64,000 bases of DNA, from the NCBI GenBank assembly GCA_964532425.1, contig CAZHIA010000001.1, forward strand, positions 201,481 through 265,480, given 5' to 3'. The notes under the pieces are model-generated. The model saw only the letters and a list, made by a program, of their open reading frames with translations, had not been told where the DNA came from and searched no databases. This stretch comes from an uncultured Candidatus Saccharibacteria bacterium. Its GTDB lineage: Bacteria > Patescibacteriota > Doudnabacteria > UBA920. This document shows positions 917 through 60,362 of the stretch, one piece after another; positions within the stretch are counted from its first letter, which is position 1; every line of letters begins with the position of its first letter. Position numbers and translations under genes: made by a program.

Positions 917-3289
917 TCAAAGGAATTTCAGGCTGGCGAGCGGGCTTGTCTGTATATCGTTCGCCATCAGGTAATAAATTTTTCCGTTATGAAGTATGGC
1001 CATGCCATGTTGCCCCGCTGCTGTCGAAAAGTTGATGGCCGGGTCGCTCTGAAAACTGCCCGCGGATGACGCGGTTACGCTCGGGCTGCCTGCTAGTTGG
1101 GTTGCGACTGTTTCAATAGTACCGTCCGGATAAGGGAATACTTCCACACTGGCCCGTTGGCCGGTGCGACTGGTCAGGACTACGGTGCTGCCTTGGCTGG
1201 AAGCCTGCCAGTCCGGAGACAGCAACAGCTCAAATCCGGCACTCGGATCCTGGTATACTTCGGCAGTTGACGGAGCAGTTGGAGACGCCGTTCGAGTGTC
1301 CGGTTGGGGACCTTGTTGTGGTGCCGCTTCAGGGATGGTCGCGGTAGAAGGGGTTGTGGTAGAAGTAACCGCGCCTGCCGGCGCCGGGTTGTCAGGGATA
1401 AGATTTACCTGGCTTTGCCCCGTGGGGGAGCCGGCGAGGGCTGTATTACTGAGGCCGGTGGCAATGGTGGCTTTTGAACTCTTCTGCAATAGGAGCACCG
1501 CTCCTGCAATGCCTATTGCGGCAAGCAGTGCCGAGGAGGCGATCTTCAGCCTGCTATGGGGAGCTGCGTCTAATTGTGGTTCCTGTTCGTGTCCGTGCGC
1601 ATGGATATCGGTGACCGGCAGGTAGAAGGATGCAATGAGCCCCAAAAAAATAAACAAAGCGGCGTAAATGAATCCGTCTTTGGCGGCGTTTGTTGAAGCT
1701 TGCTTGGCAAGTTCGCCGATCTCTTGTGATATAACGGGCGGCGTATTTTGCGGTGCGACCCCGCTGGAGCCGAACTCGACATTATTTTGAGGATCACTGA
1801 CGCTTTTGATAATCCCCGGTTTAGCCTGGTCAGGCAGCACCGGGCTATTTTGCACGCCCCGTGAAAGGCCACTCACCAGCGAGGTGAGGACGGCGGCGCC
1901 GATGATGGCAGCACCGAGGCTGGACCCGACCTGCCGGAGCGTATTGTTGACACCGCTGGCCTCACCGGCTTCGCGCGGTGGAACGGATGACAGAGTTAGG
2001 TTGGAGATGGGAGCCATGACCATGCCCATGCCAACGCCAAAAAGGATGAGGCCGGGAATGAGGTGGTTGGCCGTTGCATCGGTGCGAACCAGAGTACGCA
2101 GCAGAAAGAGCGCACAGACCTCAACCAGCAGGCCGGCCTGTATAAGGTACTTCGGAGAAATTTTGCGCTGCAGTACGCCGGTCAGCGGCGCCATGACCAG
2201 GATGGTGGCTGACATGGGCAGCAGGGCCAGGCCAGTATGGAAGGCATCCAGCTGGCGTACGGACTGCAACCACACCGGTAATGCAAAGACCAGTCCGGTC
2301 ATACCGAGCGTCATGATGGCAACGGTAATGGAACCGGAAGTGAATTGTGAGTTTTGGAATAAATGGAGGGAGACCAGTGGTGTTTTGCCGGCAGCCTCGC
2401 GCCGTTTTTGCCACCATACGAATAGTCCCAAAAAGAGAAAACCGAGAATCATGGCGAAGGGGACTATGGAAAGGCCGCCTAAATGCAACTGATGTCCAAA
2501 CAGAGAAAATGTGTCTTTTGCCTTCCACCAGCCATACGTTTCAGATTCAATAATCCCAAAGACAATGCCGAGCAGTCCGATGGCAGACAGGGCAACGCCG
2601 CCCCAGTCAATCTGTGGTTTGCGCTCATCTTTTGATTCGGCCAGGAGCAGGAGCGAACCGAGTATGAGTACGGCCGCCACGAAGACGTTAATGCGGAACC
2701 CCCATCGCCAGCTGTAATGAGTCGTGAGGTATCCTCCCAACAGCGGGCCGATTGCTGAGCTCGCCCCGGCCACCCCACCCCAGATGCCGAAAGCTTTGGC
2801 GCGGTCCGCGCCTTTGAAGTTTGCTACGACGAGCGAAGCAGTCGCAGGCATCATCAGTGCGGCGCCGATACCCTCAATGACGGATTCTCCGATGATCATG
2901 GTGCCGACACGGTTGCTGATGGAAGCCAAAAAAGAGCCTACAGCAAAAATTCCGGCGCCGACCATGAACATGCGCTTGCGGCCGAACAGGTCACCAAACC
3001 GCCCGCCGGTAATTGTGAAAGCGGCAAGAATGAGTGAATAAGCCGTAATGACCCACTGCAGACTTTGTAAGTCGGTATGCAAGTCTTGGATCAGGGTCGA
3101 TAATGATACGTTGAGCAGCGTGGAGTCAATGATGATAATGGCAAGACCTAAAGAAAGCACGACCAGACCACCCCATTTGCGGAAAAAGGACTGGTGCTGG
3201 AGGGGGGTGGATCCAGGCTGAGTTTGGGCTCCTTTAGCTTCGGCTTGTTCTTGGTCTTCTCTGGTGGTTGGAATCGCGATTTCTGACAT
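917..3289 (-). CDS. MFS transporter, DHA2/EmrB-like (14 TMS) with long Ser/Thr/Pro-rich C-terminal extracytoplasmic extension
   Basis: N-terminal motifs GxLxDRxGRKxxL-like (GGRFGDLFGRKRMF) and multiple TM helices. About 250 aa of low-complexity TTPSTAT linker plus a folded C-terminal domain follow the last TM. Confidence 0.85.
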   Translation of the reverse strand: MSEIAIPTTREDQEQAEAKGAQTQPGSTPLQHQSFFRKWGGLVVLSLGLAIIIIDSTLLNVSLSTLIQDLHTDLQSLQWVITAYSLILAAFTITGGRFGDLFGRKRMFMVGAGIFAVGSFLASISNRVGTMIIGESVIEGIGAALMMPATASLVVANFKGADRAKAFGIWGGVAGASSAIGPLLGGYLTTHYSWRWGFRINVFVAAVLILGSLLLLAESKDERKPQIDWGGVALSAIGLLGIVFGIIESETYGWWKAKDTFSLFGHQLHLGGLSIVPFAMILGFLFLGLFVWWQKRREAAGKTPLVSLHLFQNSQFTSGSITVAIMTLGMTGLVFALPVWLQSVRQLDAFHTGLALLPMSATILVMAPLTGVLQRKISPKYLIQAGLLVEVCALFLLRTLVRTDATANHLIPGLILFGVGMGMVMAPISNLTLSSVPPREAGEASGVNNTLRQVGSSLGAAIIGAAVLTSLVSGLSRGVQNSPVLPDQAKPGIIKSVSDPQNNVEFGSSGVAPQNTPPVISQEIGELAKQASTNAAKDGFIYAALFIFLGLIASFYLPVTDIHAHGHEQEPQLDAAPHSRLKIASSALLAAIGIAGAVLLLQKSSKATIATGLSNTALAGSPTGQSQVNLIPDNPAPAGAVTSTTTPSTATIPEAAPQQGPQPDTRTASPTAPSTAEVYQDPSAGFELLLSPDWQASSQGSTVVLTSRTGQRASVEVFPYPDGTIETVATQLAGSPSVTASSAGSFQSDPAINFSTAAGQHGMAILHNGKIYYLMANDIQTSPLASLKFL

Positions 3290-3519: not shown

Positions 3520-3690
3520 GCTTCTCAAATTCCAAATCACAAGCATCAAATACCAAATAAATTCCAATACCCAATATTCAAGGCCTGCAGGATTTAGAAT
3601 TTGAAATTTGAATTTTATTTGATTTTTGGGATTTGGAACTTGGTGCTTTAACGGGTGGGCGTCTCCTGCCTGCCGGCAGGCAGGGTCAGT
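3520..3690. repeat. AT-rich CCAAAT/ATTTGG inverted-repeat element ending in GC palindrome CCTGCCTGCCGGCAGGCAGG (copy A)
   Basis: Imperfect long inverted arms around a CCTGCAGG centre, plus a 20-bp GC palindrome at 3665-3684. A related element lies at 24730-24870. Confidence 0.7.
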
Positions 3691-3764: not shown

Positions 3765-4865
3765 ATGCCAAAACGATTTTTATTTTTTATAGCAATTGCC
3801 CAATTGCTTATTATTTTGTTCCACTGGTTATTTTACCAAGCGTTCCTGCTTTTGTTCCCGTCGTTGCAGCCTCATCACCTCGGGGTTGCGTGGGCACTGG
3901 GAGTGTTGTCGGTCAGCTTCTTGTATTTTTCGGTCGTTGATTTTAATTCTGAGAATATCGTGGCTCGGGTCGGTTATATTGTAGCCGCGGCTTGGATGCC
4001 CGTATTCTTTTATTTATTTTTAGCCTCCGTCCTCTCCCTCTGCATATACCTGTTTTCTCGCGAGGTGAGTCTGATAGCAGCCCCGATTTTGTACGCTGCT
4101 GCCGTGGTATTGTCTGTGTACGGATTGGTGAACGCGCGTATGATCCGGATCACGAAAGTCAGGGTGCCGCTGCCGAATCTGCCCGCCTACTGGCACGGCA
4201 AGACAGCCGTAATGCTGTCCGATCTGCACCTTGGCCATGTGCTGCGTGAGGGGTACGCGCGCAAACTGGTTGCCCGCGTCAACGCGCTGCACCCTGACAT
4301 CGTCTTCATCCCGGGAGATTTTTTTGACGGGGTTCATACGACATTCAAAGAGTTGGCGGAATTGTTTAAAGGCATCGCTGCGCCGCATGGCATCTATTAT
4401 GTCAGCGGTAATCACGAGCAGATCGCCGGCATGAGAGTTTGTGAGAATGCTTTGGAAGAGACCGGAATTCGGGTGCTCGACGATCAAAAGGTGGAGGTAG
4501 AGGGTCTGCAGATAGTCGGCACTGCGTATCATACGGGCGAAACTGCGGAGAGCTTGCGGCAGATTTTTTCTGCAATGGGAATTGCGCGGGAGAAGCCATC
4601 CGTGTACTTGAAACATATTCCCGACCATTTGGATGCGGCAGCTGACGCCGGCCTGGATTTGCAGCTGTCGGGACACACCCATTTGGGGCAGATTTGGCCA
4701 TTCCGTTTCGTAACCCGCCGCTTGTTCGGCCAATTCGATTATGGCCTGCATTATTTTAAAGACATGGCTGTGTATACCTCAAGCGGCGTCGGAACTTGGG
4801 GACCGCCGATGCGGGTCTTTACCCGCTCAGAGATAGTCTCACTCACATTTATCAACAGGTCATAA
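3765..4865 (+). CDS. membrane-anchored calcineurin-like metallophosphoesterase (YkuE-like)
   Basis: N-terminal TM helices followed by the motifs LSDLHLGH, GDFFDG, GNHE and GHTH. Confidence 0.85.
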   Translation: MPKRFLFFIAIAQLLIILFHWLFYQAFLLLFPSLQPHHLGVAWALGVLSVSFLYFSVVDFNSENIVARVGYIVAAAWMPVFFYLFLASVLSLCIYLFSREVSLIAAPILYAAAVVLSVYGLVNARMIRITKVRVPLPNLPAYWHGKTAVMLSDLHLGHVLREGYARKLVARVNALHPDIVFIPGDFFDGVHTTFKELAELFKGIAAPHGIYYVSGNHEQIAGMRVCENALEETGIRVLDDQKVEVEGLQIVGTAYHTGETAESLRQIFSAMGIAREKPSVYLKHIPDHLDAAADAGLDLQLSGHTHLGQIWPFRFVTRRLFGQFDYGLHYFKDMAVYTSSGVGTWGPPMRVFTRSEIVSLTFINRS

Positions 4866-24424: not shown

Positions 24425-24739
24425 ATGAACAAGAACGAGTTGATTCCATCACGCGAGTTGTCGCCGTCTCAATCAGCGGAAACCGAGGCACCTTCAGGCA
24501 TGTTGACCAAGGATGATGCGGAACGGGTGTATGCCGGCAGGCAGCACGATCTGGAACAGGTTCGCCCGTTTATTTGCCTGAAGTTCTACCATGAGATCAG
24601 CGAAAAGCTCGAGCGGGAAAAGCGCCAGTTCGACCGGTTACTGCATATCGAGGATAAAAAGCAGGACATACTCTCGCGCTACACCTTCGTGCTGAACCCA
24701 TACTTTTTTGAACAGAGGTTTATCGATCAACGAGCCTAG
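24425..24739 (+). CDS. hypothetical protein
   Basis: 104-aa ORF followed by the GC palindrome/terminator at 24761. Confidence 0.45.
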   Translation: MNKNELIPSRELSPSQSAETEAPSGMLTKDDAERVYAGRQHDLEQVRPFICLKFYHEISEKLEREKRQFDRLLHIEDKKQDILSRYTFVLNPYFFEQRFIDQRA

Positions 24740-24870
24740 TTGCAAATTTCCAATATCCAATTTCCAACCTGCCTGCCGGCAGGCAGGTTTCCAATAAAAT
24801 GTCTAATGCTCGAATTTGGAAATTATTATATTTGAAATTTTGTTAGGAATTAGAAATTGGGAATTTGAAA
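24730..24870. repeat. AT-rich CCAAAT/ATTTGG inverted-repeat element centred on CCTGCCTGCCGGCAGGCAGG (copy B)
   Basis: The same 20-bp GC palindrome lies at 24761-24780, flanked by ttccaatatccaatttccaa / gaaattgggaatttgaaatttt arms. Confidence 0.7.
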
Positions 24871-24874
24871 TTTT

Positions 24875-26158
24875 ATGCCTACGTCTTCTATTATTCTTGG
24901 TGAAAACATTTACCGCAATGTGCATCGGCCAATCGTGTTCCAGGACCATGACCGGCTGCGCCATACGTACATGCTCGGCAAGACCGGAGTGGGGAAGTCC
25001 ACGGTCTTTCAGAATATGTGCTTGCAGGACATCCGCAACCGGCACGGCGCCTGTTTTATTGACCCGCACGGCGAATCTATTGCTTGGCTGCTGGAACGTA
25101 TCCCAGAAAACCGCCTGGAAGATGTCATTCTGTTTGAACCTGCGGACGAGGACTGCTCATTCGGGCTTAACCTGCTTGAGGCCAGCAGCGAGCGCGAGAA
25201 AGATTTTTTGGTCTCCCAGGTCATTGAAATTTTTTACAAGCTATTCGATCCCGGACGAACCGGCATTATCGGCCCGCAATTCGAACACTGGCTGCGCTGC
25301 GCTGCGCTGACGGTCATGGCGGGCCCGGAAGGCGGGAGTTTAATAGAGATCCCCCGGCTGTTCATTGATAAGGGGTTTGAAGCCAAAAAACGCAAGTACC
25401 TCAAAGACCCGGTGGTCCTGGATTTTTGGACCAAACAAATGGCCGGCACTTCGGATTTCCACAAGTCAGAAATGCTCAACTACTTCACCTCAAAGTTCGG
25501 CCATTTCATGAACAATTCGCAGATGCGCAACATTATCGGCCAGCGCGTTTCATCATTCAATTTTGACGAGGTACTGCGCCAGGAAAAGATTCTACTGGTC
25601 GATCTATCCAAGGGCAAGATTGGAGACATGAATGCGCAAATGCTCGGGCTCATTTTGGTAGCCAAGTTGCAGGGGGCGGTGCTCAGGCGTGCCGCCGTAC
25701 CGGAGCAGGAACGATACCCGTTCTACCTGTATGTCGACGAATTCCAGAATCTGGTCACAGACACGTTCGCGTCCATGCTGTCCGAGTCGCGCAAGTACGG
25801 CCTCGGGGTGCATTTAACCAACCAGTACTTCGCGCAGCTGCCGCCGGCTATGCAAAATGCCGTGCTGGGCAACGTCGGCACGCTGCTGGCGTTTGAAGTG
25901 GGCGTGGAAGATGCACAAATCTTAAGCCGCGAATTTGCCCCTATCGACAAGGAAGACTTTATAAACCTGCCGCGCTTCTCGTTTTATATCAAGCTGATGA
26001 TTGATGGCAAGACAAGTGAGGCATTTTCCGGAACCAGTCTGCCGCCGGACAGCAAGGTCATGGCAGGCAACGGCGATCGTATTCGTCAGATCAACCGTCT
26101 AGCTTATGCCGTCCCGCGCCTTCTCGCTGAGGAGCTGGTGAAGAGTTATATGAGATAG
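24875..26158 (+). CDS. TraD/VirD4/TrwB-like P-loop ATPase domain protein (T4SS coupling-protein-like, no TM anchor)
   Basis: Walker A GKTGVGKST and Walker B YLYVDEFQNL, followed by the SESRKYGLGVHLTNQ motif typical of the FtsK/TraD/HerA clade. Confidence 0.55.
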   Translation: MPTSSIILGENIYRNVHRPIVFQDHDRLRHTYMLGKTGVGKSTVFQNMCLQDIRNRHGACFIDPHGESIAWLLERIPENRLEDVILFEPADEDCSFGLNLLEASSEREKDFLVSQVIEIFYKLFDPGRTGIIGPQFEHWLRCAALTVMAGPEGGSLIEIPRLFIDKGFEAKKRKYLKDPVVLDFWTKQMAGTSDFHKSEMLNYFTSKFGHFMNNSQMRNIIGQRVSSFNFDEVLRQEKILLVDLSKGKIGDMNAQMLGLILVAKLQGAVLRRAAVPEQERYPFYLYVDEFQNLVTDTFASMLSESRKYGLGVHLTNQYFAQLPPAMQNAVLGNVGTLLAFEVGVEDAQILSREFAPIDKEDFINLPRFSFYIKLMIDGKTSEAFSGTSLPPDSKVMAGNGDRIRQINRLAYAVPRLLAEELVKSYMR

Positions 26159-35757: not shown

Positions 35758-35856
35758 AATTAATTCCTCCTGAACTTTTACTCACTGGTGAGAGACCAGA
35801 AAGTAATCTGGCTATTATACAATCTATAACTAATTATAGCAAGGGGTATTGAAAAT

Positions 35857-35881
35857 CCCCTCCATGGGGACCATGGAGGGG
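35857..35881. repeat. 25-bp perfect palindrome CCCCTCCATGGGGACCATGGAGGGG (copy 1)
   Basis: An identical copy lies at 37808..37832. The two copies bracket the genes 35953..37750. Confidence 0.9.
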
Positions 35882-37750: not shown

Positions 37751-37807
37751 ACGGAGTTCGCCGAACTATAAAGACCTGAATCACTTCCGGGTCTTCTTTT
37801 TATTAAA

Positions 37808-37832
37808 CCCCTCCATGGGGACCATGGAGGGG
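37808..37832. repeat. 25-bp perfect palindrome CCCCTCCATGGGGACCATGGAGGGG (copy 2)
   Basis: Identical to 35857..35881. It also acts as a terminator for the CDF gene, being followed by a T-run on the minus strand. Confidence 0.9.
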
Positions 37833-42750: not shown

Positions 42751-42776
42751 CATTTTACTGCATATGCAGTAAAATG
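42751..42776. promoter_or_regulatory. 26-bp perfect palindrome CATTTTACTGCATATGCAGTAAAATG overlapping the start codon of 42774..43511
   Basis: Shares the CTGCATATGCAG core with the 44-bp palindrome family. Confidence 0.8.
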
Positions 42777-43511
42777 TTGAATATATTAACCGTTTGGAGA
42801 GATGGAGGAAATTCAAACGGGAACGCAGCGAGTGTTATGAGACAAAAAGATAAAAAAATCAGCATTAAGTATGTAGTCAAAAAACATTTACCTGAAAAGA
42901 AATCGAATACGCCACCTCTGTTTACGCCGGAGGAAGTGGCGAAACTGAAGACCGCAGGTAGTGTTGTACTTGGTATTGTCGTAGCGGCCGGAGCACTGAC
43001 GATTGCGGCCATGGCTCCAAATGCTCTGCAGCTCATCAAATTTCTGCCAGGGTTGAACAAGCGAAATAAGCGTTATTCTGAGAGCGAAGAAATTGCCAAG
43101 GCGGTGTACTATTTACGGGACAGGGGATATGTGGAATTGTTACCTCGTGGCAATGATTATGAAATACGGGTTACAAAAAAAGGACACAAGAGAATTTTAA
43201 AATTTGACCTTCAGAAGCTGGAAGTCCCGCGACCCGAAAAATGGGATGGCAAGTGGTGGATTATTATTGCGGATGTACCGATTAATGAGCGCGTGCATGC
43301 AGGCTATTTGAGGGACAAGTTCAAAGCCATGTGCTTTTTCCCGCTCCAAAAAACCGTATGGGTCTATCCGTACGATCCGCGCGACCAGGTGGATTTTGTC
43401 TCCTCGTACTTTAGCTTGGAACGGTTTCTCACCATATTGCGGGCAGACAAGCTGGATCCAGAAGATGAAAAAGAACTCACTTCTTTCTTTAAGGAACACA
43501 GTATACTCTAA
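42774..43511 (+). CDS. PaaX-like protein: N-terminal TM segment + winged-HTH + PaaX-C/Cas2-like domain
   Basis: The wHTH region EIAKAVYYLRDRGYVELL... is followed by KWDGKWWIIIADVP...LRDKF....FPLQKTVWVYPYD, which matches the PaaX C-terminal pattern. Confidence 0.5.
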   Translation: MLNILTVWRDGGNSNGNAASVMRQKDKKISIKYVVKKHLPEKKSNTPPLFTPEEVAKLKTAGSVVLGIVVAAGALTIAAMAPNALQLIKFLPGLNKRNKRYSESEEIAKAVYYLRDRGYVELLPRGNDYEIRVTKKGHKRILKFDLQKLEVPRPEKWDGKWWIIIADVPINERVHAGYLRDKFKAMCFFPLQKTVWVYPYDPRDQVDFVSSYFSLERFLTILRADKLDPEDEKELTSFFKEHSIL

Positions 43512-43541: not shown

Positions 43542-43585
43542 GTCATTCTACAAAAAGCTGCATATGCAGCTTTTTGTAGAATGAC
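43542..43585. repeat. 44-bp perfect palindrome GTCATTCTACAAAAAGCTGCATATGCAGCTTTTTGTAGAATGAC (family copy 1)
   Basis: Seen directly. It doubles as a bidirectional A-run/hairpin/T-run terminator. Confidence 0.9.
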
Positions 43586-43784
43586 TTTCATTAGGTAAAT
43601 TTAATGAGGGCATAATCAATTTCTCAAGCTTGACGCTTATGGTGATATGGTGTTTAAATAGAGAGTCCGCACGGACTTACCTGATCCGAATAAAACCTAA
43701 CTTGCTAACCACATGTTGGGTTCGGAAAGGGACAACTGTTGCGCTAGACACGCAATGGTACTTCAATTTGAAAGAGGATTATAA

Positions 43785-44855: not shown

Positions 44856-44886
44856 AAAACCACCCTTCGACAAGCTCAGGGTGGTT
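44856..44886. terminator. conserved bidirectional terminator hairpin AAAACCACCCttcgacaagctcaGGGTGGTT (family copy 1)
   Basis: Sits between convergent genes. Near-identical copies lie at 46025 and 56218. Confidence 0.8.
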
Positions 44887-44918
44887 ATGGAGACGAAAAG
44901 CACATGGCGCCGTTTTGC

Positions 44919-46024: not shown

Positions 46025-46058
46025 AAAACCACCCTAGCTAGAACAAAGGGTGGTTTTT
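46025..46058. terminator. conserved terminator hairpin AAAACCACCCtagctagaacaaaGGGTGGTTTTT (family copy 2)
   Basis: Seen directly after the STAS pair. Confidence 0.8.
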
Positions 46059-46474: not shown

Positions 46475-46518
46475 ATTATTCTACAAAAAGCTGCATATGC
46501 AGTTTTTTGTAGAATAAT
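46475..46518. repeat. 44-bp palindrome ATTATTCTACAAAAAGCTGCATATGCAGTTTTTTGTAGAATAAT (family copy 2, 1 mismatch)
   Basis: Seen directly. Confidence 0.9.
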
Positions 46519-46638
46519 CATGATTGAGTATGGGAATATACGAAGATGACCATTGTATGGGGACCTTTGTAACACAAAACCACCGCATGAGCGGCGGTTT
46601 AAAGTTTTTTTGTGGGGATACCTGGCCTACTTCGCTTT

Positions 46639-46953
46639 TCAGGCTACGCTGATCTCTGTGAAAAAACCTTTAAGCATTTCTTTCAGAACTGTTTTTCCTT
46701 TGGTTGTTTTAAAATACCTTTCCCTTTTTAGTGCATCAAATTTGTTCGGAAAAGCTTCATAAAAAATTAATTCAAGCGGTCTGCGATTTCGGGTGGAGAT
46801 ATTTTTTCCAGAATTATGATCTTTAACTCTTGTTTTTAAATCTTCAGAGTACCCAATATAAAACAGTCTATCTTTCAGGCTGCGGAGAATATAAACATAG
46901 TAAAATTTTACTGGCATATGTTTGTTTATACTATTTTGGTTATAGTATATCAC
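46639..46953 (-). CDS. GIY-YIG nuclease-family protein (small, URI-domain only)
   Basis: FYYVYILRS..DRLFYIGYSEDLKTRVKDHNSGK....RP..LIFYE motifs. The start is probably the internal Met (MPVKFYYVY). Confidence 0.75.
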   Translation of the reverse strand: MIYYNQNSINKHMPVKFYYVYILRSLKDRLFYIGYSEDLKTRVKDHNSGKNISTRNRRPLELIFYEAFPNKFDALKRERYFKTTKGKTVLKEMLKGFFTEISVA

Positions 46954-47137: not shown

Positions 47138-47526
47138 TGGTGGAGATGCCGGGAGTTAAACCCGGGTCCAAAACGTATCGATCTTCCCATTATTCACAAG
47201 ATTAGTCGGTTATTGTACCTCTATGATATCCAACCGACAACGAATCATAAAGGCTGATATACAAGTCTTGTTCCCGGCAGGTATATCGGCCACCGGGCTA
47301 GCAACCTCTAATGAACCCACTAACCCCGAGCGGAGGTGCGCGCGGGAGTGAGGTAACAACCTAAAGTTAGGCCATTACAGGTGCGAGGTCGGCGTTTTGA
47401 AACGCGGCCACTACCTTTTGCCAGGAATTGGCATTTGTTGGTTGATCGCAGGATTTTCGAGGTCAGCAATCGTGCTCGTCTTGCATATGAAAAGATGTCA
47501 AAGTTCTGTCAAAAACCGTCATCCCC
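47138..47526 (-). ncRNA. ssrA: tmRNA (SsrA), one-piece
   Basis: On the minus strand the 5' end is GGGGAUGACGG and the 3' end is GGACCCGGGUUUAACUCCCGGCAUCUCCACCA. The 7-bp acceptor stem has a G3-U pair (alanine identity). A T-arm with a 7-nt loop is followed by ACCA. An internal tag-like frame follows a UAGUG context, analogous to E. coli UAGUC-GCA: GCC GCG UUU CAA AAC GCC GAC CUC GCA CCU GUA AUG GCC UAA (AAFQNADLAPVMA*). Confidence 0.7.
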
Positions 47527-48645: not shown

Positions 48646-48701
48646 TCGGCCAAACCAAAAAGAGGGAAGATGAATCGAGCGTTGTCCTGTGACGACGCGC
48701 A

Positions 48702-48744
48702 CTGCCGCCAAGACATCTTCGGATGTTGAGGCGGCTTTGTTTTG
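48702..48744. terminator. repeated terminator hairpin CTGCCGCCAAGACATCTTCGGATGTTGAGGCGGCTTTGTTTT (copy 1)
   Basis: An identical 40-nt copy lies at 49645..49688. Confidence 0.85.
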
Positions 48745-49603: not shown

Positions 49604-49644
49604 AACGTTTGCACAATCTGAGTGCAGAACGGTCATCTTCTATA

Positions 49645-49688
49645 CTGCCGCCAAGACATCTTCGGATGTTGAGGCGGCTTTGTTTTTG
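49645..49688. terminator. repeated terminator hairpin (copy 2, identical to 48702..48744)
   Basis: Seen directly. Confidence 0.85.
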
Positions 49689-50657: not shown

Positions 50658-50812
50658 AAACCATTCGAAAACCGCTAGCCCTCCGCCAGCGGTTATATGT
50701 AAAAGAGGAACTGACACCTTGTTTGTTTATTAGAATATAGTACCGGAGGCTTCTGCTGGTGAATACATAGTCCTTTGTAGAATATCAAAATTTACAAAGA
50801 TTATCTTTGTGT

Positions 50813-50851
50813 ATGGGGGACTGAAGGAGTAAGTTTGAGATTTCTGCTATT
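50813..50851. repeat. direct repeat ATGGGGGACTGAAGGAGTAAGTTTGAGATTTCTGCTATT (left copy)
   Basis: Its partner lies at 57705..57747, with a 17-nt identical core GGACTGAAGGAGTAAG plus extended similarity. The pair brackets the low-GC island. Confidence 0.7.
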
Positions 50852-51074
50852 TTTGAAACCGCGCTCTAGGGCGACTTTGTTTTGCAAAGGTCCCCACGCA
50901 ATGGTCACCTTGGTATACCTTGGTATATGATTTGGTCGTTCGGAAAAGAAATAATAAACTATTTCAATAATTTCAATAGCAATAAATAAGTCTTCATGCG
51001 CCTTATTTATTTATACTTGTTAAATAAGCCAAAAAATGGCATACTATCTGTGTAAATTACTATAGCCAACAATA

Positions 51075-53498
51075 ATGTTGAAGATCTATCTAAAACAAGA
51101 CTGGGATTATCCATCCAATTACGATCCCAATACTAACCCCGGACACTTCGCTGGAAGAGATAAAGAGAAGAAAGAATTAGTCGATGAATTCCTGCGTAAA
51201 GATAACGGTAGTATTTTAATTAGCGGCGCAAGAGGTGTCGGTAAAACCTCTTTAGTTTACTACGCATTAAAAGAGTCTCAAGTAAGAAATACAAATATTA
51301 TTCCTATTGTCCTTAATGCATCTCAATTAGAGCTCCATACTTACCAGGTAACTACTAAGGATAAGGATTTGCCTTATGTTATTATAGAAAACCTGATCAG
51401 AAGACTATACGGGTATTTTCAGACAGATGGTACTAAAGTAGAAATTAGTAACAAAAATTATCAAAAGTTAGGCAACCTTTACAAGAAAGCCACGGCTAAA
51501 GAATATAGTCACTCTGAGCGATATGGAAACAAGGATGAATCTGTTGACGAAAATACCGTTGAAGAAACAAATACAGCTGAATCTACTTTCGATAAAAAAT
51601 CTCTTATTAACCTATTTTACTTAATAGGCATTTATACTCTATTTGCTGATCAATATTTTAATATAGAATATTGGAACAAAATAATTGGCATAACCTTTTT
51701 ATTTATACCCACATTTAGTTATAAATATCTATTTAAATCTGTTAAAAAGAACTTAAGTAAACTTAGCAAATCTAATTCCGCAGAAGATTTATACAAGGAA
51801 GATAATTCTTTGGGCAATCTTGAATATGAACTGAATTCTCTACTAAAAGAGTTATGCAAAGAAGGCAAAAAAGTCATTTTTGTCATTGACGAACTGGATA
51901 AGTTGGAAGATTCTCAAGAGTCAGAATCTAAAAAAGTATTTGAAATTATTAAAACTTTTAAGAATCTTTTTACTTTATCTTCTGCTTTGTTTGTTTTTAT
52001 TACTAGTGATATTTCATATAATACTGTAATGGCAACGAGAGCAGAACGTAGAATGTATTACACTTTATTTACTAATCGAATCTTTTTAAATCGGCCAGCG
52101 TATACTGACTTGGTTAAATATCTTAAAGGTATTGTAGATTATGTTGACAATAGTTTAACCAAAGATCGACCAGAGTTTACAGCCTTAGAGCAAAAGGATA
52201 GAGAGAAATTAAATGGTCTCTTCAATCATTTATGTTATGAAGCAAAAGGAGACTATTTTGAGCTATCTTTTGTTATTAGAGACTACATTAATGATTACAG
52301 TACAGAAGGCGAAAAACAACCAATAATCAATCTTGAGGACGATAAATACTTCGGCTTTGATGATAGGCTGAAAGCTAAACTACAAATAGTAGTAGCTCAA
52401 ATATACGATATAAATAAAAATCCAGTCCAATCACGTTGGCATGAGAATGATGGAATACTATCACAGCTTTATGGTTTCTTTGAGCGTAATCTCGCCAAAG
52501 GAACTTTTAGAATTAACCAGAAAACTGAAAATCAGTTAATAAAAGATGATTTAATCACTTACCTAAAAAGATTAGAAATTATTAAACTTCTAAAAAAAGA
52601 ACCGGAACAAGAAAATTCGGAACCAGACGTTGTCCATGTTTATCAATGGACAAATAACATTCCTGGAGAAAAAAGCATTCCAGATATTCCCGAAGCTCCA
52701 AATACTTTATTTAATGAAGAGCAAGCTTTTATTAATATCGCTAAGAAATACGTTCAATTAATTAACGATATTGATGACTTGGAAACCGATGCTAAAAATG
52801 TTGCTGAAGGAAAGTTTGAAAGAGGATCCTATGATTTTGAAACTGGAATAATTCAAACCCGTGATGCCAGCTCCATAACTGGTATTAATGCCTTTAACTT
52901 TTTTGAAAAATACGATGACTATATTTCCGGATTACTTGATTCTAAGCCCGAACATATTAATAAAGCAGATTTAAAGAATTTCACTAAGGAATTTGAAGAA
53001 GAGTTAAACAAGATTAAAGAGGCTACACTAAATATATTTAAAAATCTACTAATTAAAGTATTTAACTCTACAGGTTTTCAACATGGATTTGCCACTTTAC
53101 CCGAAGACGGCTCATTATTCACAAGCCTGAATGACTTAAGGACCGAAGTTGTTAATAAAGGAGTTCCACATTTTGTAGTATATAACTTAGACCCTGAGAA
53201 ATCTAAGCAGCTTTTAGTTACTCAAAATATAGACCTGAATATTTTGAGTAATGAAACTATAAAGTTACTGGATAAAAATTTATCGTATAGAATACTCAAC
53301 ATTCAAACTAATTCAGCACTAGACTACTCAAATAAAAATAAGTACAAAGATCAAAAGACTGAAACTACTAAAGGCAAAAGTAGAGTAACCGAGTTTACAA
53401 AAACGTCCGATTCATTTATTAACCTTGTAGCTAATAATGATTTATCAGTTTATCCTGAAATGCTAAAATCTGTTCATGATTGGTTTAATAGTAAGTAA
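51075..53498 (+). CDS. KAP-family P-loop NTPase (STAND-like, PifA-like) with membrane hairpin inserted between Walker A and B, plus large unknown C-terminal region
   Basis: FAGRDKEKKEL..x..ILISGARGVGKTSL Walker A, then two hydrophobic helices (LINLFYLIGIYTLFADQYF, IIGITFLFIPTFSYKYLF), then Walker B VIFVIDELDKLED. About 30% GC, against about 55% for the window. Confidence 0.65.
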   Translation: MLKIYLKQDWDYPSNYDPNTNPGHFAGRDKEKKELVDEFLRKDNGSILISGARGVGKTSLVYYALKESQVRNTNIIPIVLNASQLELHTYQVTTKDKDLPYVIIENLIRRLYGYFQTDGTKVEISNKNYQKLGNLYKKATAKEYSHSERYGNKDESVDENTVEETNTAESTFDKKSLINLFYLIGIYTLFADQYFNIEYWNKIIGITFLFIPTFSYKYLFKSVKKNLSKLSKSNSAEDLYKEDNSLGNLEYELNSLLKELCKEGKKVIFVIDELDKLEDSQESESKKVFEIIKTFKNLFTLSSALFVFITSDISYNTVMATRAERRMYYTLFTNRIFLNRPAYTDLVKYLKGIVDYVDNSLTKDRPEFTALEQKDREKLNGLFNHLCYEAKGDYFELSFVIRDYINDYSTEGEKQPIINLEDDKYFGFDDRLKAKLQIVVAQIYDINKNPVQSRWHENDGILSQLYGFFERNLAKGTFRINQKTENQLIKDDLITYLKRLEIIKLLKKEPEQENSEPDVVHVYQWTNNIPGEKSIPDIPEAPNTLFNEEQAFINIAKKYVQLINDIDDLETDAKNVAEGKFERGSYDFETGIIQTRDASSITGINAFNFFEKYDDYISGLLDSKPEHINKADLKNFTKEFEEELNKIKEATLNIFKNLLIKVFNSTGFQHGFATLPEDGSLFTSLNDLRTEVVNKGVPHFVVYNLDPEKSKQLLVTQNIDLNILSNETIKLLDKNLSYRILNIQTNSALDYSNKNKYKDQKTETTKGKSRVTEFTKTSDSFINLVANNDLSVYPEMLKSVHDWFNSK

Positions 53499-53585
53499 AG
53501 TTTACCGAATGCGTGGTACTAGAGGCTTTGAATTTGGCAAACTATTTTGCTCTAAATAAGGCATTTTTGGGCAAATAATATCAAT

Positions 53586-54245
53586 ATGACCACTAAGGAA
53601 CAAGTGCTTACTTTAATTTTCCAAGCTGTTCCGTCTTTCCAAAATTCAAAGATTTGGAAAGAGCATTTAGAATTTTGGGGAGATACAGAAGAACGAGGCT
53701 TGTACAATGATACGGCTGAATTGGCTAGATATATGGCGGAACAATATAAGGCTGGGGAAACTAAGGAACTTCCAGCATTATTCACATTGATTGAAAAGTT
53801 GTACCTCGAGGGAGATCATTACGTCAAAGAATTGGCAACAATTGGATTCTTAGAAGATCTTCAAGGCCAATTTGGTAATGCTGAAATAAAATCTGAGGTA
53901 TTAGAAAAGTATCTTGGACCTGAATCACAAAAATGGTGGAACTATTTAAATAACATTTGGTCAGGCAAGCTAAAGGAAAAATATCAATGGTTCCATGAGC
54001 GTGTTACTGAAATCGTCAATGCGCTTGACCCCTGGTATTTAATTTCAGGAGGTGCCCCCAAAGATGAATATAGCCAGGAAGTTACCCGAATTATAGCTGG
54101 TCTGAAGGATTGCGAAACGGAAGAGGATGCAAGGCAGCTTGTACTTAAACATTTAGGTGGCGAAAACAGTAGCAAAGAAGCTTGCGCCAAGATTGCCCAG
54201 CAGGTTTTCAAAATTTGGGAACAAATATTATTTTCCAAGGAATAA
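53586..54245 (+). CDS. hypothetical protein (island gene 2)
   Basis: 219-aa ORF, low GC. Confidence 0.5.
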   Translation: MTTKEQVLTLIFQAVPSFQNSKIWKEHLEFWGDTEERGLYNDTAELARYMAEQYKAGETKELPALFTLIEKLYLEGDHYVKELATIGFLEDLQGQFGNAEIKSEVLEKYLGPESQKWWNYLNNIWSGKLKEKYQWFHERVTEIVNALDPWYLISGGAPKDEYSQEVTRIIAGLKDCETEEDARQLVLKHLGGENSSKEACAKIAQQVFKIWEQILFSKE

Positions 54246-54249
54246 TTGT

Positions 54250-55176
54250 ATGTGGCCATTTAAGAAAGAAAATAAAAAATTCATGCTGCTTCAATCGGAA
54301 AAAGAAGGCAGGCCGGTTTGGATAACTGTCGATGGCAGCTTGAAAAATTTAGCAAAAAAAGATGAAACTCCCTGGTGTCTTTGGCTTGGAATACAAATTG
54401 AATCCCAAAAAGGATTACCGGACGAAAAGGAAGCAAAAGAGTTGAATGATTTTGAGGATGAAATTCAGAATAAATTATCAAAAATTGGTAAAATTCATTT
54501 TGTTCTTAGAACTACCTGGAACGGCCATCGGGACTTGTATTTTTACTTAAGTAAGGCAAAAGAATCCCATGAACTCCTATTGGGTATTACAAATTTACCA
54601 AAACCGCCGAAACAATTTCAATATGAAATTTCAAAAGACCCAAATTGGCAATCTGTTAATTGGGTATTTGAGCAACTAGATAAACAGCCTAAATCAGACA
54701 ATCCGAAAGATGAGAATAGTGTGACTTTGTTTGCTTTCAACAGCAATGAGAAACTGAAATCTCTTGCATATAGGGCTTTGAATGATGCAATAGAATTTAT
54801 GAAGAAAGATGGAAAATTTAACCCTTTCTGTTTAACAGAAAAAGAACTTTGGCGTCCAAAGTCCATTGGCGTTAATGAAAATATTCAAGAAATAGAAAAA
54901 CACATTGGTGTCTTACAAGACGAAACCATTGCTGTTTACTGCCATAGTGGTACAATCGGCATTCCGCCTTTTGGTAAAGAGGTAAACTGGCCGACACAGT
55001 TTGCAATATTTGTAAAAGCTTATGATAAAAACGAAGATAAAGGGTACTTGATTTTTCAGATGTATCGTCCAAGGACTGAAGCGGAAGGATTTGCTATATT
55101 AGGAAATACCACAATAGCACCAACTCCTAATATTTTTATTCATAGCTGTTTTCACGAAGGTGGCCTTTGCAAGTAA
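54250..55176 (+). CDS. hypothetical protein (island gene 3)
   Basis: Start at the ATG of MWPFKKENKK... 308 aa, low GC. Confidence 0.5.
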   Translation: MWPFKKENKKFMLLQSEKEGRPVWITVDGSLKNLAKKDETPWCLWLGIQIESQKGLPDEKEAKELNDFEDEIQNKLSKIGKIHFVLRTTWNGHRDLYFYLSKAKESHELLLGITNLPKPPKQFQYEISKDPNWQSVNWVFEQLDKQPKSDNPKDENSVTLFAFNSNEKLKSLAYRALNDAIEFMKKDGKFNPFCLTEKELWRPKSIGVNENIQEIEKHIGVLQDETIAVYCHSGTIGIPPFGKEVNWPTQFAIFVKAYDKNEDKGYLIFQMYRPRTEAEGFAILGNTTIAPTPNIFIHSCFHEGGLCK

Positions 55177-55747
55177 TTTGGAAAAACGAATGAAAAGAAG
55201 AGGGCATCTGTGGTTGCGGATTTCAGAAGAATCTAATGCCTTAGATAATCTCCAAAAAGCATATTCATTTATCATTCAAACCCATTCTGATGAGAATGCT
55301 TGGAAATGGGTTATATTAAGTATCCACTCCGCTTTATTCAGTTTTGCTATATGCGCTTTAAAAGGTACAAGTACTATAAATGTAACTATTCAGACAAAAA
55401 AAGGTGAGAGATTGATTAGTTTTCCTGAAGCGATCGAAATGGTACAGGACGAGAATCGGATGAGAATGACCGTGATGAGTAAGCATCTCCAGTTAACAGA
55501 TGACGAAAAGCGCTCGATAGATAGGCTGCATACAGAATTTCGAAATGAATTAGAACATTACATACCTAAATTATGGGTAATTGAAGTTCCCATGCTGCCG
55601 AAGATGGTTACTCACTGCTTGGATGTAATTAGATTTTTAGCTATTGAGTCAGGTAATTACGATCATTTTAGTGGCTACCAAAAACGAAAAATCAAATCAC
55701 TGATTTTCCAAAGTAAGAAATTTCTTACAAAGATGACCTTCGTTTAA
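55160..55747 (+). CDS. hypothetical protein (island gene 4)
   Basis: 195-aa ORF overlapping the previous stop. The true start may be the internal Met (MKRRGHLWL). Confidence 0.4.
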   Translation: MAFASNLEKRMKRRGHLWLRISEESNALDNLQKAYSFIIQTHSDENAWKWVILSIHSALFSFAICALKGTSTINVTIQTKKGERLISFPEAIEMVQDENRMRMTVMSKHLQLTDDEKRSIDRLHTEFRNELEHYIPKLWVIEVPMLPKMVTHCLDVIRFLAIESGNYDHFSGYQKRKIKSLIFQSKKFLTKMTFV

Positions 55748-55826
55748 ATACCTGTTTCTACAGGTATTTTCATTTAGCATGGTATTATTATAGGAGGAGT
55801 GCTACCTATAATTTGGTAATAGATAC

Positions 55827-56150
55827 ATGCTCAGGTTTTTAAAAACTCTCCATACTGTTATCTGGGTAATAATGGCCTCTGCCAATTTTTTGGCTTTTTA
55901 TTTTGCCTACATCGGCAGATTTGATGCCTGGTTTTGGGTACCCTGCTTACTCATAGTGGGTGAGAGCATAATAGTAGCCATGAACGGATGGCACTGCCCC
56001 ATAACCCCGATTGCGGCGAAGTACACGAAAGACCGAAATCCAAACTTTGATATTTATTTGCCTCAATGGTTAGCCGAATACAATGTCCGAATCTTTGGCA
56101 TACTCATAGTCTTGGAAATCATTATTGTTCTGGCCAAAAGATATAGGTAA
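55827..56150 (+). CDS. small membrane protein (DUF2784-like), island gene 5
   Basis: Two to three TM helices and a GWHCPITP motif. Confidence 0.5.
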   Translation: MLRFLKTLHTVIWVIMASANFLAFYFAYIGRFDAWFWVPCLLIVGESIIVAMNGWHCPITPIAAKYTKDRNPNFDIYLPQWLAEYNVRIFGILIVLEIIIVLAKRYR

Positions 56151-56180
56151 AAAGTACAAAAAGGTACCTGACACCATTTT

Positions 56181-56212
56181 GTTCCCGGATTTAACTCCCG
56201 GCATCTCAACCG
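56181..56212 (+). repeat. partial copy of the tmRNA 3' end (T-arm + acceptor 3' strand), inverted relative to ssrA
   Basis: gttcccggatttaactcccggcatctcaaccg matches ggacccgggtttaactcccggcatctccacca (the ssrA 3' end) at 27 of 32 positions. Confidence 0.75.
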
Positions 56213-56217
56213 TATAT

Positions 56218-56252
56218 GAAAACCACCCTTCGACTAGTTCAGGGTGGTTTTG
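56218..56252. terminator. conserved terminator hairpin AAAACCACCCttcgactagttcaGGGTGGTTTT (family copy 3)
   Basis: Differs from copy 1 at only 3 loop positions. Confidence 0.8.
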
Positions 56253-56977: not shown

Positions 56978-57019
56978 ATTATTCTAAAAAAGCTGCATAT
57001 GCAGCTTTTTGTAGAATGA
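56978..57019. repeat. 44-bp palindrome family copy 3 (CATTATTCTAAAAAAGCTGCATATGCAGCTTTTTGTAGAATGAT)
   Basis: Seen directly. A TTGACA-N17-TAGACT promoter-like sequence lies about 45 bp downstream. Confidence 0.9.
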
Positions 57020-57121
57020 TAAGATTTTCAATGATTACCTTTGCGTGTCTGTCTTGACAAATTATAGTAGTCATAGTAGACTTTGTAGTCTTATAAAGAT
57101 ATGGAAGTAGGGGGGATTAAA

Positions 57122-60261: not shown

Positions 60262-60305
60262 ATTATTCTACAAAAAACTGCATATGCAGTTTTTTGTAGA
60301 ATAAT
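60262..60305. repeat. 44-bp perfect palindrome TATTATTCTACAAAAAACTGCATATGCAGTTTTTTGTAGAATAATGA (family copy 4)
   Basis: Seen directly. Confidence 0.9.
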
Positions 60306-60362
60306 GAACTGATAAATAATAACCGCTCCGAGAAGCTCGGAGCGGTTTTGTGTTTGGCGTGA

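Follow-up and report, generated by a model that had tools for sequence, protein, structure and literature searches.

An exact 20-bp GC palindrome at two AT-rich foldbacks of a Patescibacteria contig and its possible link to small GIY-YIG nucleases

The window analysed here, a whole stretch of 64 kb from an uncultured Patescibacteria bacterium, carries in two of its spacers an AT-rich CCAAAT/ATTTGG inverted repeat together with a GC palindrome, which raises the question of whether these sites are copies of a mobile element, a conserved regulatory module or a structured RNA. An initial annotation of the sequence described them as two copies of one element of 130-170 bp located in promoter-containing spacers, MITE- or REP-like in size and structure, or alternatively as a binding platform for a nucleoid protein or regulator. 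We compared the two sites with each other and with related lineages, and combined this with searches for the palindrome in other genomes, viruses and metagenomes, thereby separating what is repeated from what merely looks alike.

Two window sites and what they share

The palindrome, CCTGCCTGCCGGCAGGCAGG (hereafter PAL), is a perfect GC palindrome of 20 nt with exactly two occurrences in the window, at 3665-3684 and 24768-24787. No third copy is present in the window even at up to 3 mismatches, and none is expected (0 in 100 shuffles), in agreement with the initial annotation, which had reported the identical palindrome at both sites. Its observation of CCAAAT/ATTTGG inverted repeats also stands: CCAAAT, CCAAT and TTCCAA words and their complements are dense at the two PAL sites only within the 64 kb, and a long AT-rich hairpin plus a GC hairpin are predicted at both. 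The features considered are:

3526-3644, no strand: foldback 1, an AT-rich imperfect hairpin with CCAAAT-type words in its 5' arm and ATTTGG-type words in its 3' arm
3584-3591, no strand: CCTGCAGG, an 8-nt palindrome at the tip or centre of foldback 1
3665-3684, no strand: PAL copy 1, an exact CCTGCCTGCCGGCAGGCAGG lying 3' of foldback 1 and separated from it by a 20-nt linker
24743-24873, no strand: foldback 2 with PAL within it, occupying the entire 135-bp spacer
24768-24787, no strand: PAL copy 2, an exact match within the 5' arm of foldback 2
917-3289, minus strand: MFS transporter gene, on one side of the site-1 spacer
3765-4865, plus strand: metallophosphoesterase gene, on the other side of the site-1 spacer
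24425-24739, plus strand: 104-aa ORF, the 5' neighbour of site 2
24875-26158, plus strand: TraD/VirD4-like gene, the 3' neighbour of site 2
46642-46917, minus strand: small free-standing GIY-YIG nuclease gene adjoining tmRNA (Pfam PF01541, E = 2.8e-18)

Site 1 is a 475-bp spacer between the divergent MFS and metallophosphoesterase genes, and site 2 is the junction of two co-directional genes (the 104-aa ORF and the TraD-like gene) in a conserved operon. The description of both as promoter-containing spacers fits copy 1, whose spacer is of the divergent promoter type, but not copy 2, which lies within a co-directional operon; consensus scans called no promoter or terminator within either element. 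The copy-1 spacer is identical base for base in an independent Logan assembly of SRR11567520 (contig L163). Logan contig L121 starts within PAL copy 2, indicating an assembly break there of the kind typical of repeats.

Outside PAL, the two elements are alike at the word level only (local score of 35 versus 22.4 +/- 4.1 for shuffles, with a maximum of 42), and their architectures differ: site 1 consists of the foldback, the 20-nt linker and PAL, whereas at site 2 PAL lies inside the 5' arm. The arms of foldback 1 align with each other over about 44 nt. When PAL is deleted in silico, the 5' arm of foldback 2 (24746-24767 plus 24788-24807) pairs with 24829-24871 over 42 nt, and copy 2 has imperfect terminal inverted repeats of about 24 nt (AAATTTCCAATATCCAATTTCCAA / TTAGAAATTGGGAATTTGAAATTT). 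The word TTTCCAA stands on both sides of PAL copy 2, but because each occurrence has a partner in the 3' arm, the pair represents arm words and not a target-site duplication. With only 20 bp in common, the sites are not two copies of one 130-170-bp element as had been proposed; the repeated unit is the 20-bp palindrome itself. The best reading of these comparisons is that a 20-bp insertion module landed in or beside two unrelated AT-rich foldbacks.

The relatives of the TraD-like gene allow site 2 to be compared with orthologous operons. This protein has thousands of homologues, those with names belonging to Patescibacteria (Doudna-, Falkow- and Magasanikbacteria, among others), which puts the window within the candidate phyla radiation. 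Three related lineages (L122, L123-125 and L126; 74-77% amino-acid identity) keep the site-2 operon, which comprises the genes for an 850-aa protein and a ClpB-like AAA protein, the 104-aa ORF and the TraD-like gene. The junction between the last two measures 5-12 bp and has no PAL in all three lineages, compared with 135 bp in the window, and the window has therefore gained about 125-130 bp at site 2. Judged from this comparison of junctions, foldback 2 with its PAL is demonstrably an insertion, and the absence at orthologous sites on which the initial proposal of mobility turned is thus observed for copy 2 in three lineages. Compared with the empty orthologous junctions, copy 2 (flanks TTGC / T-ATG) shows no duplicated target site. 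For copy 1 no empty site was found; its closest homologues (55% identity) differ in their neighbouring genes: another gene lies upstream, and the spacer measures 101 bp and has no PAL. Local slippage, and not transposition, may have given rise to the foldbacks.

Insertion and distribution of the palindrome

We joined the flanks of each PAL and searched the joined sequences against all retrieved DNA, which yielded 11 pairs of filled and empty sites. Ten of them gain exactly 20 nt, and the L131/L133 pair gains a nested 42-44 nt; neither a target-site duplication nor a common target sequence was found in the 11 pairs, which are:

L106, L083 and L158: tRNA-Gly, tRNA-Ser and another tRNA, 5' fragment versus intact copy (L106 at 100% identity)
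L078, L022, L109, L143 and L019: paralogous repeats with versus without PAL
L091 versus L046: a hairpin common to two Thermodesulfovibrionales genomes
L151 versus L077: variable loop of a phage tRNA-Met versus a bacterial tRNA-Met
L131 versus L133: a phage coding region versus its homologue, with the nested 42-44 nt

These pairs identify PAL, at the level of sequence comparison, as a discrete insertion unit that enters DNA without target-site duplication. L133 also has a PAL-like palindrome, CCTGCCTGCAGGCAGG, that is shorter than PAL and whose core is CCTGCAGG, the palindrome of foldback 1. Several insertions lie at a stem-loop junction (L019, L091, and the D and anticodon arms of tRNAs), related phages inherit PAL at the same tRNA, and PAL is nested in PAL-like hairpins in L018, L021 and L028. 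Degenerate PAL variants occur as well, and there is one tenfold tandem array of a 21-nt variant.

Most copies (110/127) lie outside long ORFs, and the other 17/127 are read through. All six reading frames of PAL are free of stop codons; being 20 bp long, it requires a second event (e.g., 22 + 20 = 42 nt) for the frame to be kept; in an RfbB-like gene, a 22-nt variant with a nested PAL adds 42 nt, or 14 codons. Two other forms of insertion were considered and rejected. Half-sites that might have been the footprint of a larger transposon with 10-bp ends are all degenerate PAL variants, none of which bracket a kb-scale insert. Direct repeats of 7-90 nt beside some PALs, which could have been variable-length target-site duplications, were judged to be pre-existing tandem words or repeats because the clean filled/empty pairs show no duplication.

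With each GTDB species represented by one genome, PAL is found on at least 120 contigs, all of separate species and spread over about 12 phyla; these numbers are lower bounds. The scan took exact matches only, which favours the consensus sequence, and the phylum tally derives from record titles. Bacteroidota account for 38 of these contigs, including isolates of Winogradskyella, Flagellimonas, Longitalea, Flavivirga, Aquiflexum, Agriterribacter and Aestuariivivens, and Patescibacteria for about 36. They are followed by contigs deposited as Gammaproteobacteria or Pseudomonadota (12), Omnitrophota (10) and Planctomycetota (6), while Desulfobacterota, Bdellovibrionota, Nitrospirota, Chloroflexi, Elusimicrobia, Verrucomicrobia/PVC and Ignavibacteria together contribute 14, and 4 are unclassified ("bacterium"). 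By our estimate, chance would give about 1 match in 596 Gb. PAL also occurs on 35 viral stretches, with six copies on one 29.5-kb viral contig, and control palindromes (halves swapped; CCAG type) had 0 and 0 viral matches. The palindrome is thus by no means confined to the two window copies, occurring in at least 120 species as well as in phages and metagenomes. BLAST searches of cultured plasmids (7.3 Gb) and phages (2.3 Gb) returned no exact PAL and gave only partial matches at chance level (e.g., 17 nt in a Runella aldehyde dehydrogenase gene).

PAL keeps one sequence across about a dozen phyla and phages, and its flanks differ from locus to locus and are unrelated. Extended inverted or direct repeats span it in about 10% of the copies only, the bases next to it vary (A at -1 in 44%, T at +1 in 39%), and no GTAG tetranucleotide was seen at the flanks. 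We found no description of PAL in the literature searched.

The association of PAL with foldbacks extends beyond the window. Local direct and inverted 7-mer repeats are about twice as common at PAL flanks as at control positions in the same loci, and of the unbiased cases, 8.2% have PAL within a long-foldback arm, compared with 2.0% of controls. A scan for PAL followed by two CCAAW words showed at least 120 metagenome loci that combine the two. Many of the metagenome matches listed are built like window site 2, with PAL splitting a CCAAT-word arm that is followed by a loop and then by an arm of ATTGG words, and the Omnitrophota locus L119 is built like window site 1. Across the PAL junction the arm runs on without a break in 22 of the 23 best metagenomic CCAAT foldbacks, as it does in window copy 2; position-specific conservation around PAL is absent overall from the metagenome foldbacks.

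Alternative readings of the two sites

Our preferred reading, to which we assign a probability of roughly 60%, is that both sites are nested selfish palindromic DNA and not a conserved regulatory module. The first layer would be an AT-rich foldback in which degenerate CCAAAT/ATTTGG words extend over about 120-130 bp; it would have been gained in intergenic spacers, a gain that is seen for copy 2 because the operon junction is tight in relatives. The second layer would be PAL, which would enter DNA without target-site duplication and without a sequence-specific target, favouring hairpin-prone DNA such as palindrome arms and loops, the D, anticodon and variable arms of tRNAs, and AT-rich foldbacks; coding DNA would tolerate it only where the frame is restored. 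Any effect on the host in the window is most likely incidental, and could include uncoupling of the 104-aa-ORF/TraD transcript, its cleavage by RNase III-type processing, or a change in the spacing of the MFS/phosphoesterase promoter region.

The alternative that survives best, albeit as an unlikely one, is a classical composite MITE, in which foldback and PAL would move as one 130-bp non-autonomous transposon via a DDE transposase recognising the terminal repeats of about 24 nt given above. Copy 2 does form a discrete insert of about 130 bp whose terminal inverted repeats are imperfect, and the succession of CCAAT arm, PAL and remaining foldback is the architecture of many metagenome loci, in about ten of which PAL splits a CCAAT word as CC|AAT. 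However, target-site duplications, which the initial annotation had suggested looking for, are absent at the foldback of copy 2 as well as at PAL, the window elements are not alignable outside PAL, and the position of PAL in the arm is not fixed across 99 metagenome elements. PAL stands alone in most contexts, and all-against-all clustering of 1,925 ORFs from about 155-160 PAL loci found no transposase-like family shared among them. The MITE- or REP-like description was right in spirit, in reading the DNA as mobile and not conserved, but the unit is 20 bp and comes without a target-site duplication.

We consider it improbable that PAL is a cis-regulatory site, i.e., a parS-like operator of a conserved DNA-binding protein with the foldback arms as a platform for a nucleoid protein. 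An exact 20-bp palindrome shared across phyla does resemble what is generally known of parS-type protein-binding sites, and both window copies are upstream of genes. Nevertheless, the initial suggestion of a binding platform is not supported, because the position is not conserved (PAL is missing from the relatives' orthologous TraD-like junction) and because PAL lands in tRNA fragments, coding genes and other palindromes. It is also found in tandem arrays, paralogous repeats exist both with and without it, and no gene class recurs downstream of it.

A structured RNA selected within transcripts, be it an RNase III processing site, an attenuator, a terminator or a small RNA, has a similarly small probability. 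Long hairpins of bacterial repeats such as Correia and ERIC are RNase substrates, read-through of the operon would necessarily transcribe copy 2, and the predicted folds are more stable than those of shuffled sequences (z = -4.1 for copy 1 on the minus strand; copy 2 has z = -3.6 and -3.7 on its two strands). But related lineages have not conserved the element, the sole pass in the window at the Rfam gathering threshold is tmRNA, and a permissive Rfam scan of both spacers gave only sub-threshold miRNA and snRNA noise. No intrinsic terminator was called at either PAL, and there is no terminator-like U-tract in the tails (GTCAGTG and TTTCCAAT). As a test for selection on RNA, comparing the strands by folding energy in 260-nt windows is confounded by base composition, and the mismatches in the arms were typed instead. 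Those in 23 related foldbacks (G.T 80, A.C 97, other 302) display no wobble or strand bias, which fits inverted repeats at the DNA level and not RNA under selection.

An artefact (adapter or linker, assembly chimera, or chance) is very improbable: a perfect palindrome common to unrelated MAGs might be library-derived and one Logan contig ends inside PAL, but PAL is present in isolates, MAGs and one single-cell genome from several assembly pipelines (as told by contig names and record titles), its flanks are all different and coherent with the taxa, its coding copies are in frame, related phages inherit it in the same tRNA, control palindromes have 0 matches, and two independent assemblies agree at copy 1.

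Small GIY-YIG nuclease genes and known palindromic systems

In a search for a factor acting in trans, small GIY-YIG nuclease genes proved to be physically linked to PAL. The linked ORFs encode 77-90 aa and consist of the catalytic domain only (Pfam PF01541). PAL lies 15-57 nt upstream of the start in 7 of the 12 GIY-YIG ORFs of PAL loci. In a reciprocal sample chosen ignoring PAL (n = 5, the best matches of a profile built mostly from PAL-linked seeds, thereby covering one subfamily), an exact PAL is found 18-44 nt upstream in four members (P0254, P0327, P0320 and P0339), the one without PAL upstream being P0270. In these four cases PAL lies in a displaced 5' tRNA fragment (Leu, Leu, Lys and Asn), with a complete tRNA downstream. 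The order of the cassette is constant: 5' tRNA fragment, PAL at the 3' end of the D-loop (...GGTA|PAL|GAGC...), the ORF at the anticodon loop, and the complete tRNA. It recurs with tRNA Leu, Lys, Asn, Arg and Gly, and is likely for Cys and Ser, for which confirmation is incomplete. In L060, a pair of PAL and GIY-YIG ORF lies within an HsdS-like ORF.

For more than 90% of PAL copies, there is no GIY-YIG gene within the retrieved locus, and a search of viral contigs for GIY-YIG relatives returned only the already-known locus. In the window, no GIY-YIG gene lies beside either PAL; the nearest, adjoining tmRNA at 46642-46917, lies at a distance of 22 kb, and its upstream sequence is free of PAL. 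This gene is a candidate trans-acting factor only, its connection with PAL being drawn from other genomes. In L299-type contigs a second PAL is found 3' of the GIY-YIG ORF, but it adjoins a scaffold gap and was therefore treated as unreliable. A 23S-rRNA-IVS four-helix-bundle protein was also considered as a partner of PAL and was rejected with one clear case only (L050).

I-TevI-type GIY-YIG homing enzymes cut some tens of nucleotides upstream of their own insertion point, and in the case of I-TevI flanking markers are co-converted. From this distance and the placement of PAL upstream of the ORFs, we infer that PAL occupies the nuclease cut site: it lies about 16-45 nt upstream of the insertion points of the GIY-YIG ORFs, approximately the I-TevI-type cut position. 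Our leading hypothesis is that PAL is non-autonomous and would owe its spread to small free-standing GIY-YIG nucleases, which would either act on it in trans or make the breaks into which it is copied. If it lay precisely where the enzyme cuts, PAL would be carried along by co-conversion as the break is repaired and would protect the site from being cleaved again; alternatively, the nuclease may mobilise PAL in a REP/RAYT-like manner. The full proposal, a cosmopolitan 20-bp mobile palindrome that is propagated by GIY-YIG nucleases or that marks and blocks their cut sites, is put forward tentatively and at well under even odds. To our knowledge, no biochemical route is known that inserts an identical 20-mer at sites without homology.

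The closest known kinds of element are the REP/REPIN-RAYT systems, foldback MITEs, Rickettsia palindromic elements, and the mobile GC clusters and palindromes of organelles. Like PAL, REPs are short GC-rich palindromes (20-40 nt) found mainly outside genes. They are non-autonomous, disperse without duplicating the target site, frequently nest or pair up to give larger hairpins, and presumably move through the action in trans of a nuclease whose gene lies at another locus. They are, however, imperfect and species-specific and have a 5' GTAG-type tetranucleotide, whereas PAL is perfect, identical over about 12 phyla and phages, and without GTAG. The gene linked to REPs is that of a RAYT, an IS200/IS605-like Y1 HUH transposase flanked by REPs, whereas the sole gene found linked to PAL is that of a GIY-YIG nuclease. 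MITEs and foldback elements (Correia/NEMIS, ERIC, Nezha, Chunjie) resemble copy 2 in being AT-rich, about 100-170 bp long, with inverted termini, intergenic and absent at orthologous sites. They differ from the window elements, which have no target-site duplication, no alignable pair of copies and no cognate IS that could be found, and whose arms are low-complexity word arrays of only about 75% complementarity. Rickettsia palindromic elements are also palindromic and enter intergenic DNA, RNA genes and, in frame, coding genes, but they measure 100-150 bp and are restricted to Rickettsia, compared with 20 bp for PAL.

The organellar repeats (yeast mitochondrial GC clusters, Neurospora PstI palindromes, Volvox and Fusarium palindromic repeats, and double-hairpin elements) share with PAL the form of short GC-rich palindromes in AT-rich spacers, mutual nesting, tRNA or rRNA flanks and occasional in-frame entry into coding sequence. 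Organellar palindromic repeats co-exist with GIY-YIG or LAGLIDADG homing endonuclease genes. They are organelle- and lineage-specific, some with short target-site duplications, whereas PAL is bacterial and phage-borne and has one sequence (for organellar palindromic repeats, cf. PMC7218506 and PMC2670323). Free-standing GIY-YIG homing endonucleases such as I-TevI and T4 SegB are, like the PAL-linked ORFs, encoded by small genes in or beside tRNA genes; SegB acts in a tRNA gene cluster (PMC2330249). These systems differ in that no conserved cut-site palindrome is known to have been described for them, and in that the PAL-linked ORFs consist of the catalytic domain only.

For annotation, the two window elements should not be recorded as conserved regulatory sites. 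Because PAL breaks assemblies (as in L121), disrupts tRNA prediction and adds short peptide insertions, it should be known to those who annotate MAGs. If the reading proposed here is true, PAL would rank with the smallest mobile DNA units on record and would stand out for retaining its exact sequence in about a dozen phyla and in phages. Under the tentative GIY-YIG proposal, tRNA genes, hairpins, AT-rich foldbacks and sometimes coding genes would be its repeated targets, and it would represent a REP/RAYT-like partnership that relies on another nuclease family and extends over about a dozen phyla and their phages. If PAL is what it seems, it would also serve as a sequence tag for the widespread, unstudied small GIY-YIG genes that lie in tRNA genes of Patescibacteria, Bacteroidota, Omnitrophota and others. 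A 20-mer and an 80-aa nuclease would then form a tractable system for studying how short palindromes spread, a question that dates from the yeast mitochondrial GC clusters and the bacterial REPs.

GIY-YIG cassettes in tRNA genes

A recurrent cassette consists of a tRNA gene whose anticodon loop is the insertion point of a GIY-YIG ORF (a small free-standing nuclease gene). It was found in contigs of phages and of Bacteroidota, Patescibacteria and Nitrospirota. The loci concerned, named by the handles of DNA stretches fetched from other genomes, metagenomes and viral contigs, are L287, L296, L313, L316, L118, L158, L037, L106, L191 and L231. The tRNA is restored by a new 5' half borne on the 3' end of the GIY-YIG ORF, and PAL, the 20-bp GC palindrome, lies in the D-arm of the displaced old 5' half. 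In L313, the displaced tRNA-Lys fragment (~620-662) has received, besides PAL and 9 nt upstream of it, another 20-nt insert, TCCGCCTACCGGCGGACAGG, which is identical to PAL at 15 of 20 positions. This PAL-like insert indicates that the same D-arm was hit repeatedly.

PAL beside other genes, variants and arrays

The pairing of PAL with GIY-YIG extends beyond tRNA genes, as in the fetched stretch L060 (3861-4200) PAL, followed 37 nt on by a GIY-YIG domain, lies within a long ORF that includes the HsdS-like motif LVPQDPND. The sole clear case of PAL paired with a gene for a 23S-rRNA-intervening-sequence protein (four-helix bundle, PF05635) is in L050 (3400-3797), where PAL lies 18 nt upstream of the gene and a second copy of the gene is found 1 kb away.

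PAL also occurs in variant and multiple forms. Ten tandem 21-nt units, CCATGCCTACCGGCAGGCAGG, each a PAL variant, make up L160 3926-4135, and their 21-nt period would preserve a reading frame. Six PAL copies are present within 29.5 kb of viral contig IMGVR_UViG_3300037242_000417 (L147, L154 and L155), which has an outer hairpin, CCCATCCTCG...CGAGGGTGGG, whose loop is occupied in some cases by PAL and in others by another GC palindrome, TCCGCCGCGGCGGA; the two loop palindromes look as if they were interchangeable. N runs directly adjoin PAL or PAL-flanking repeats in L299 (955-1088) and L063 (~2070-2190). Because these are scaffold gaps or masked stretches, the second PAL of L299-type contigs, located after the GIY-YIG ORF, is unreliable.

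Other repeats of the window and the tmRNA island

The window holds a second palindromic repeat family, unrelated to PAL. This 38-nt near-perfect palindrome, ATTCTACAAAAAGCTGCATATGCAGCTTTTTGTAGAAT, has five copies, all confined to 42-60 kb, and hairpin repeats are also present.

Palindromic and hairpin repeats in the window
42757-42783, 43545-43597, 46478-46530, 56980-57032 and 60265-60317: ATTCTACAAAAAGCTGCATATGCAGCTTTTTGTAGAAT family
44856-44889, 46025-46058, 56219-56252 and 60317-60350: terminator-like hairpin repeat AAAACCACCC...GGGTGGTTTT, four copies
48701-48743 and 49644-49686: 43-nt hairpin, two identical copies 943 bp apart
35854-35881 and 37805-37832: hairpin repeat AATCCCCTCCATGGGGACCATGGAGGGG, two copies

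The window also contains a tmRNA gene, next to which stands a small GIY-YIG gene.

The tmRNA region
47138-47526, minus strand: tmRNA
46642-46917, minus strand: small GIY-YIG gene, next after the tmRNA
56177-56216: second copy, in inverted orientation, of the 3' end of the tmRNA

The inverted copy bounds a low-GC (33-37%) island at 50800-56200, which encodes an 807-aa AAA/STAND-like ATPase together with DUF7674 and DUF695 proteins. Most likely it is an island of the integrated or defence type that lies at the tmRNA.
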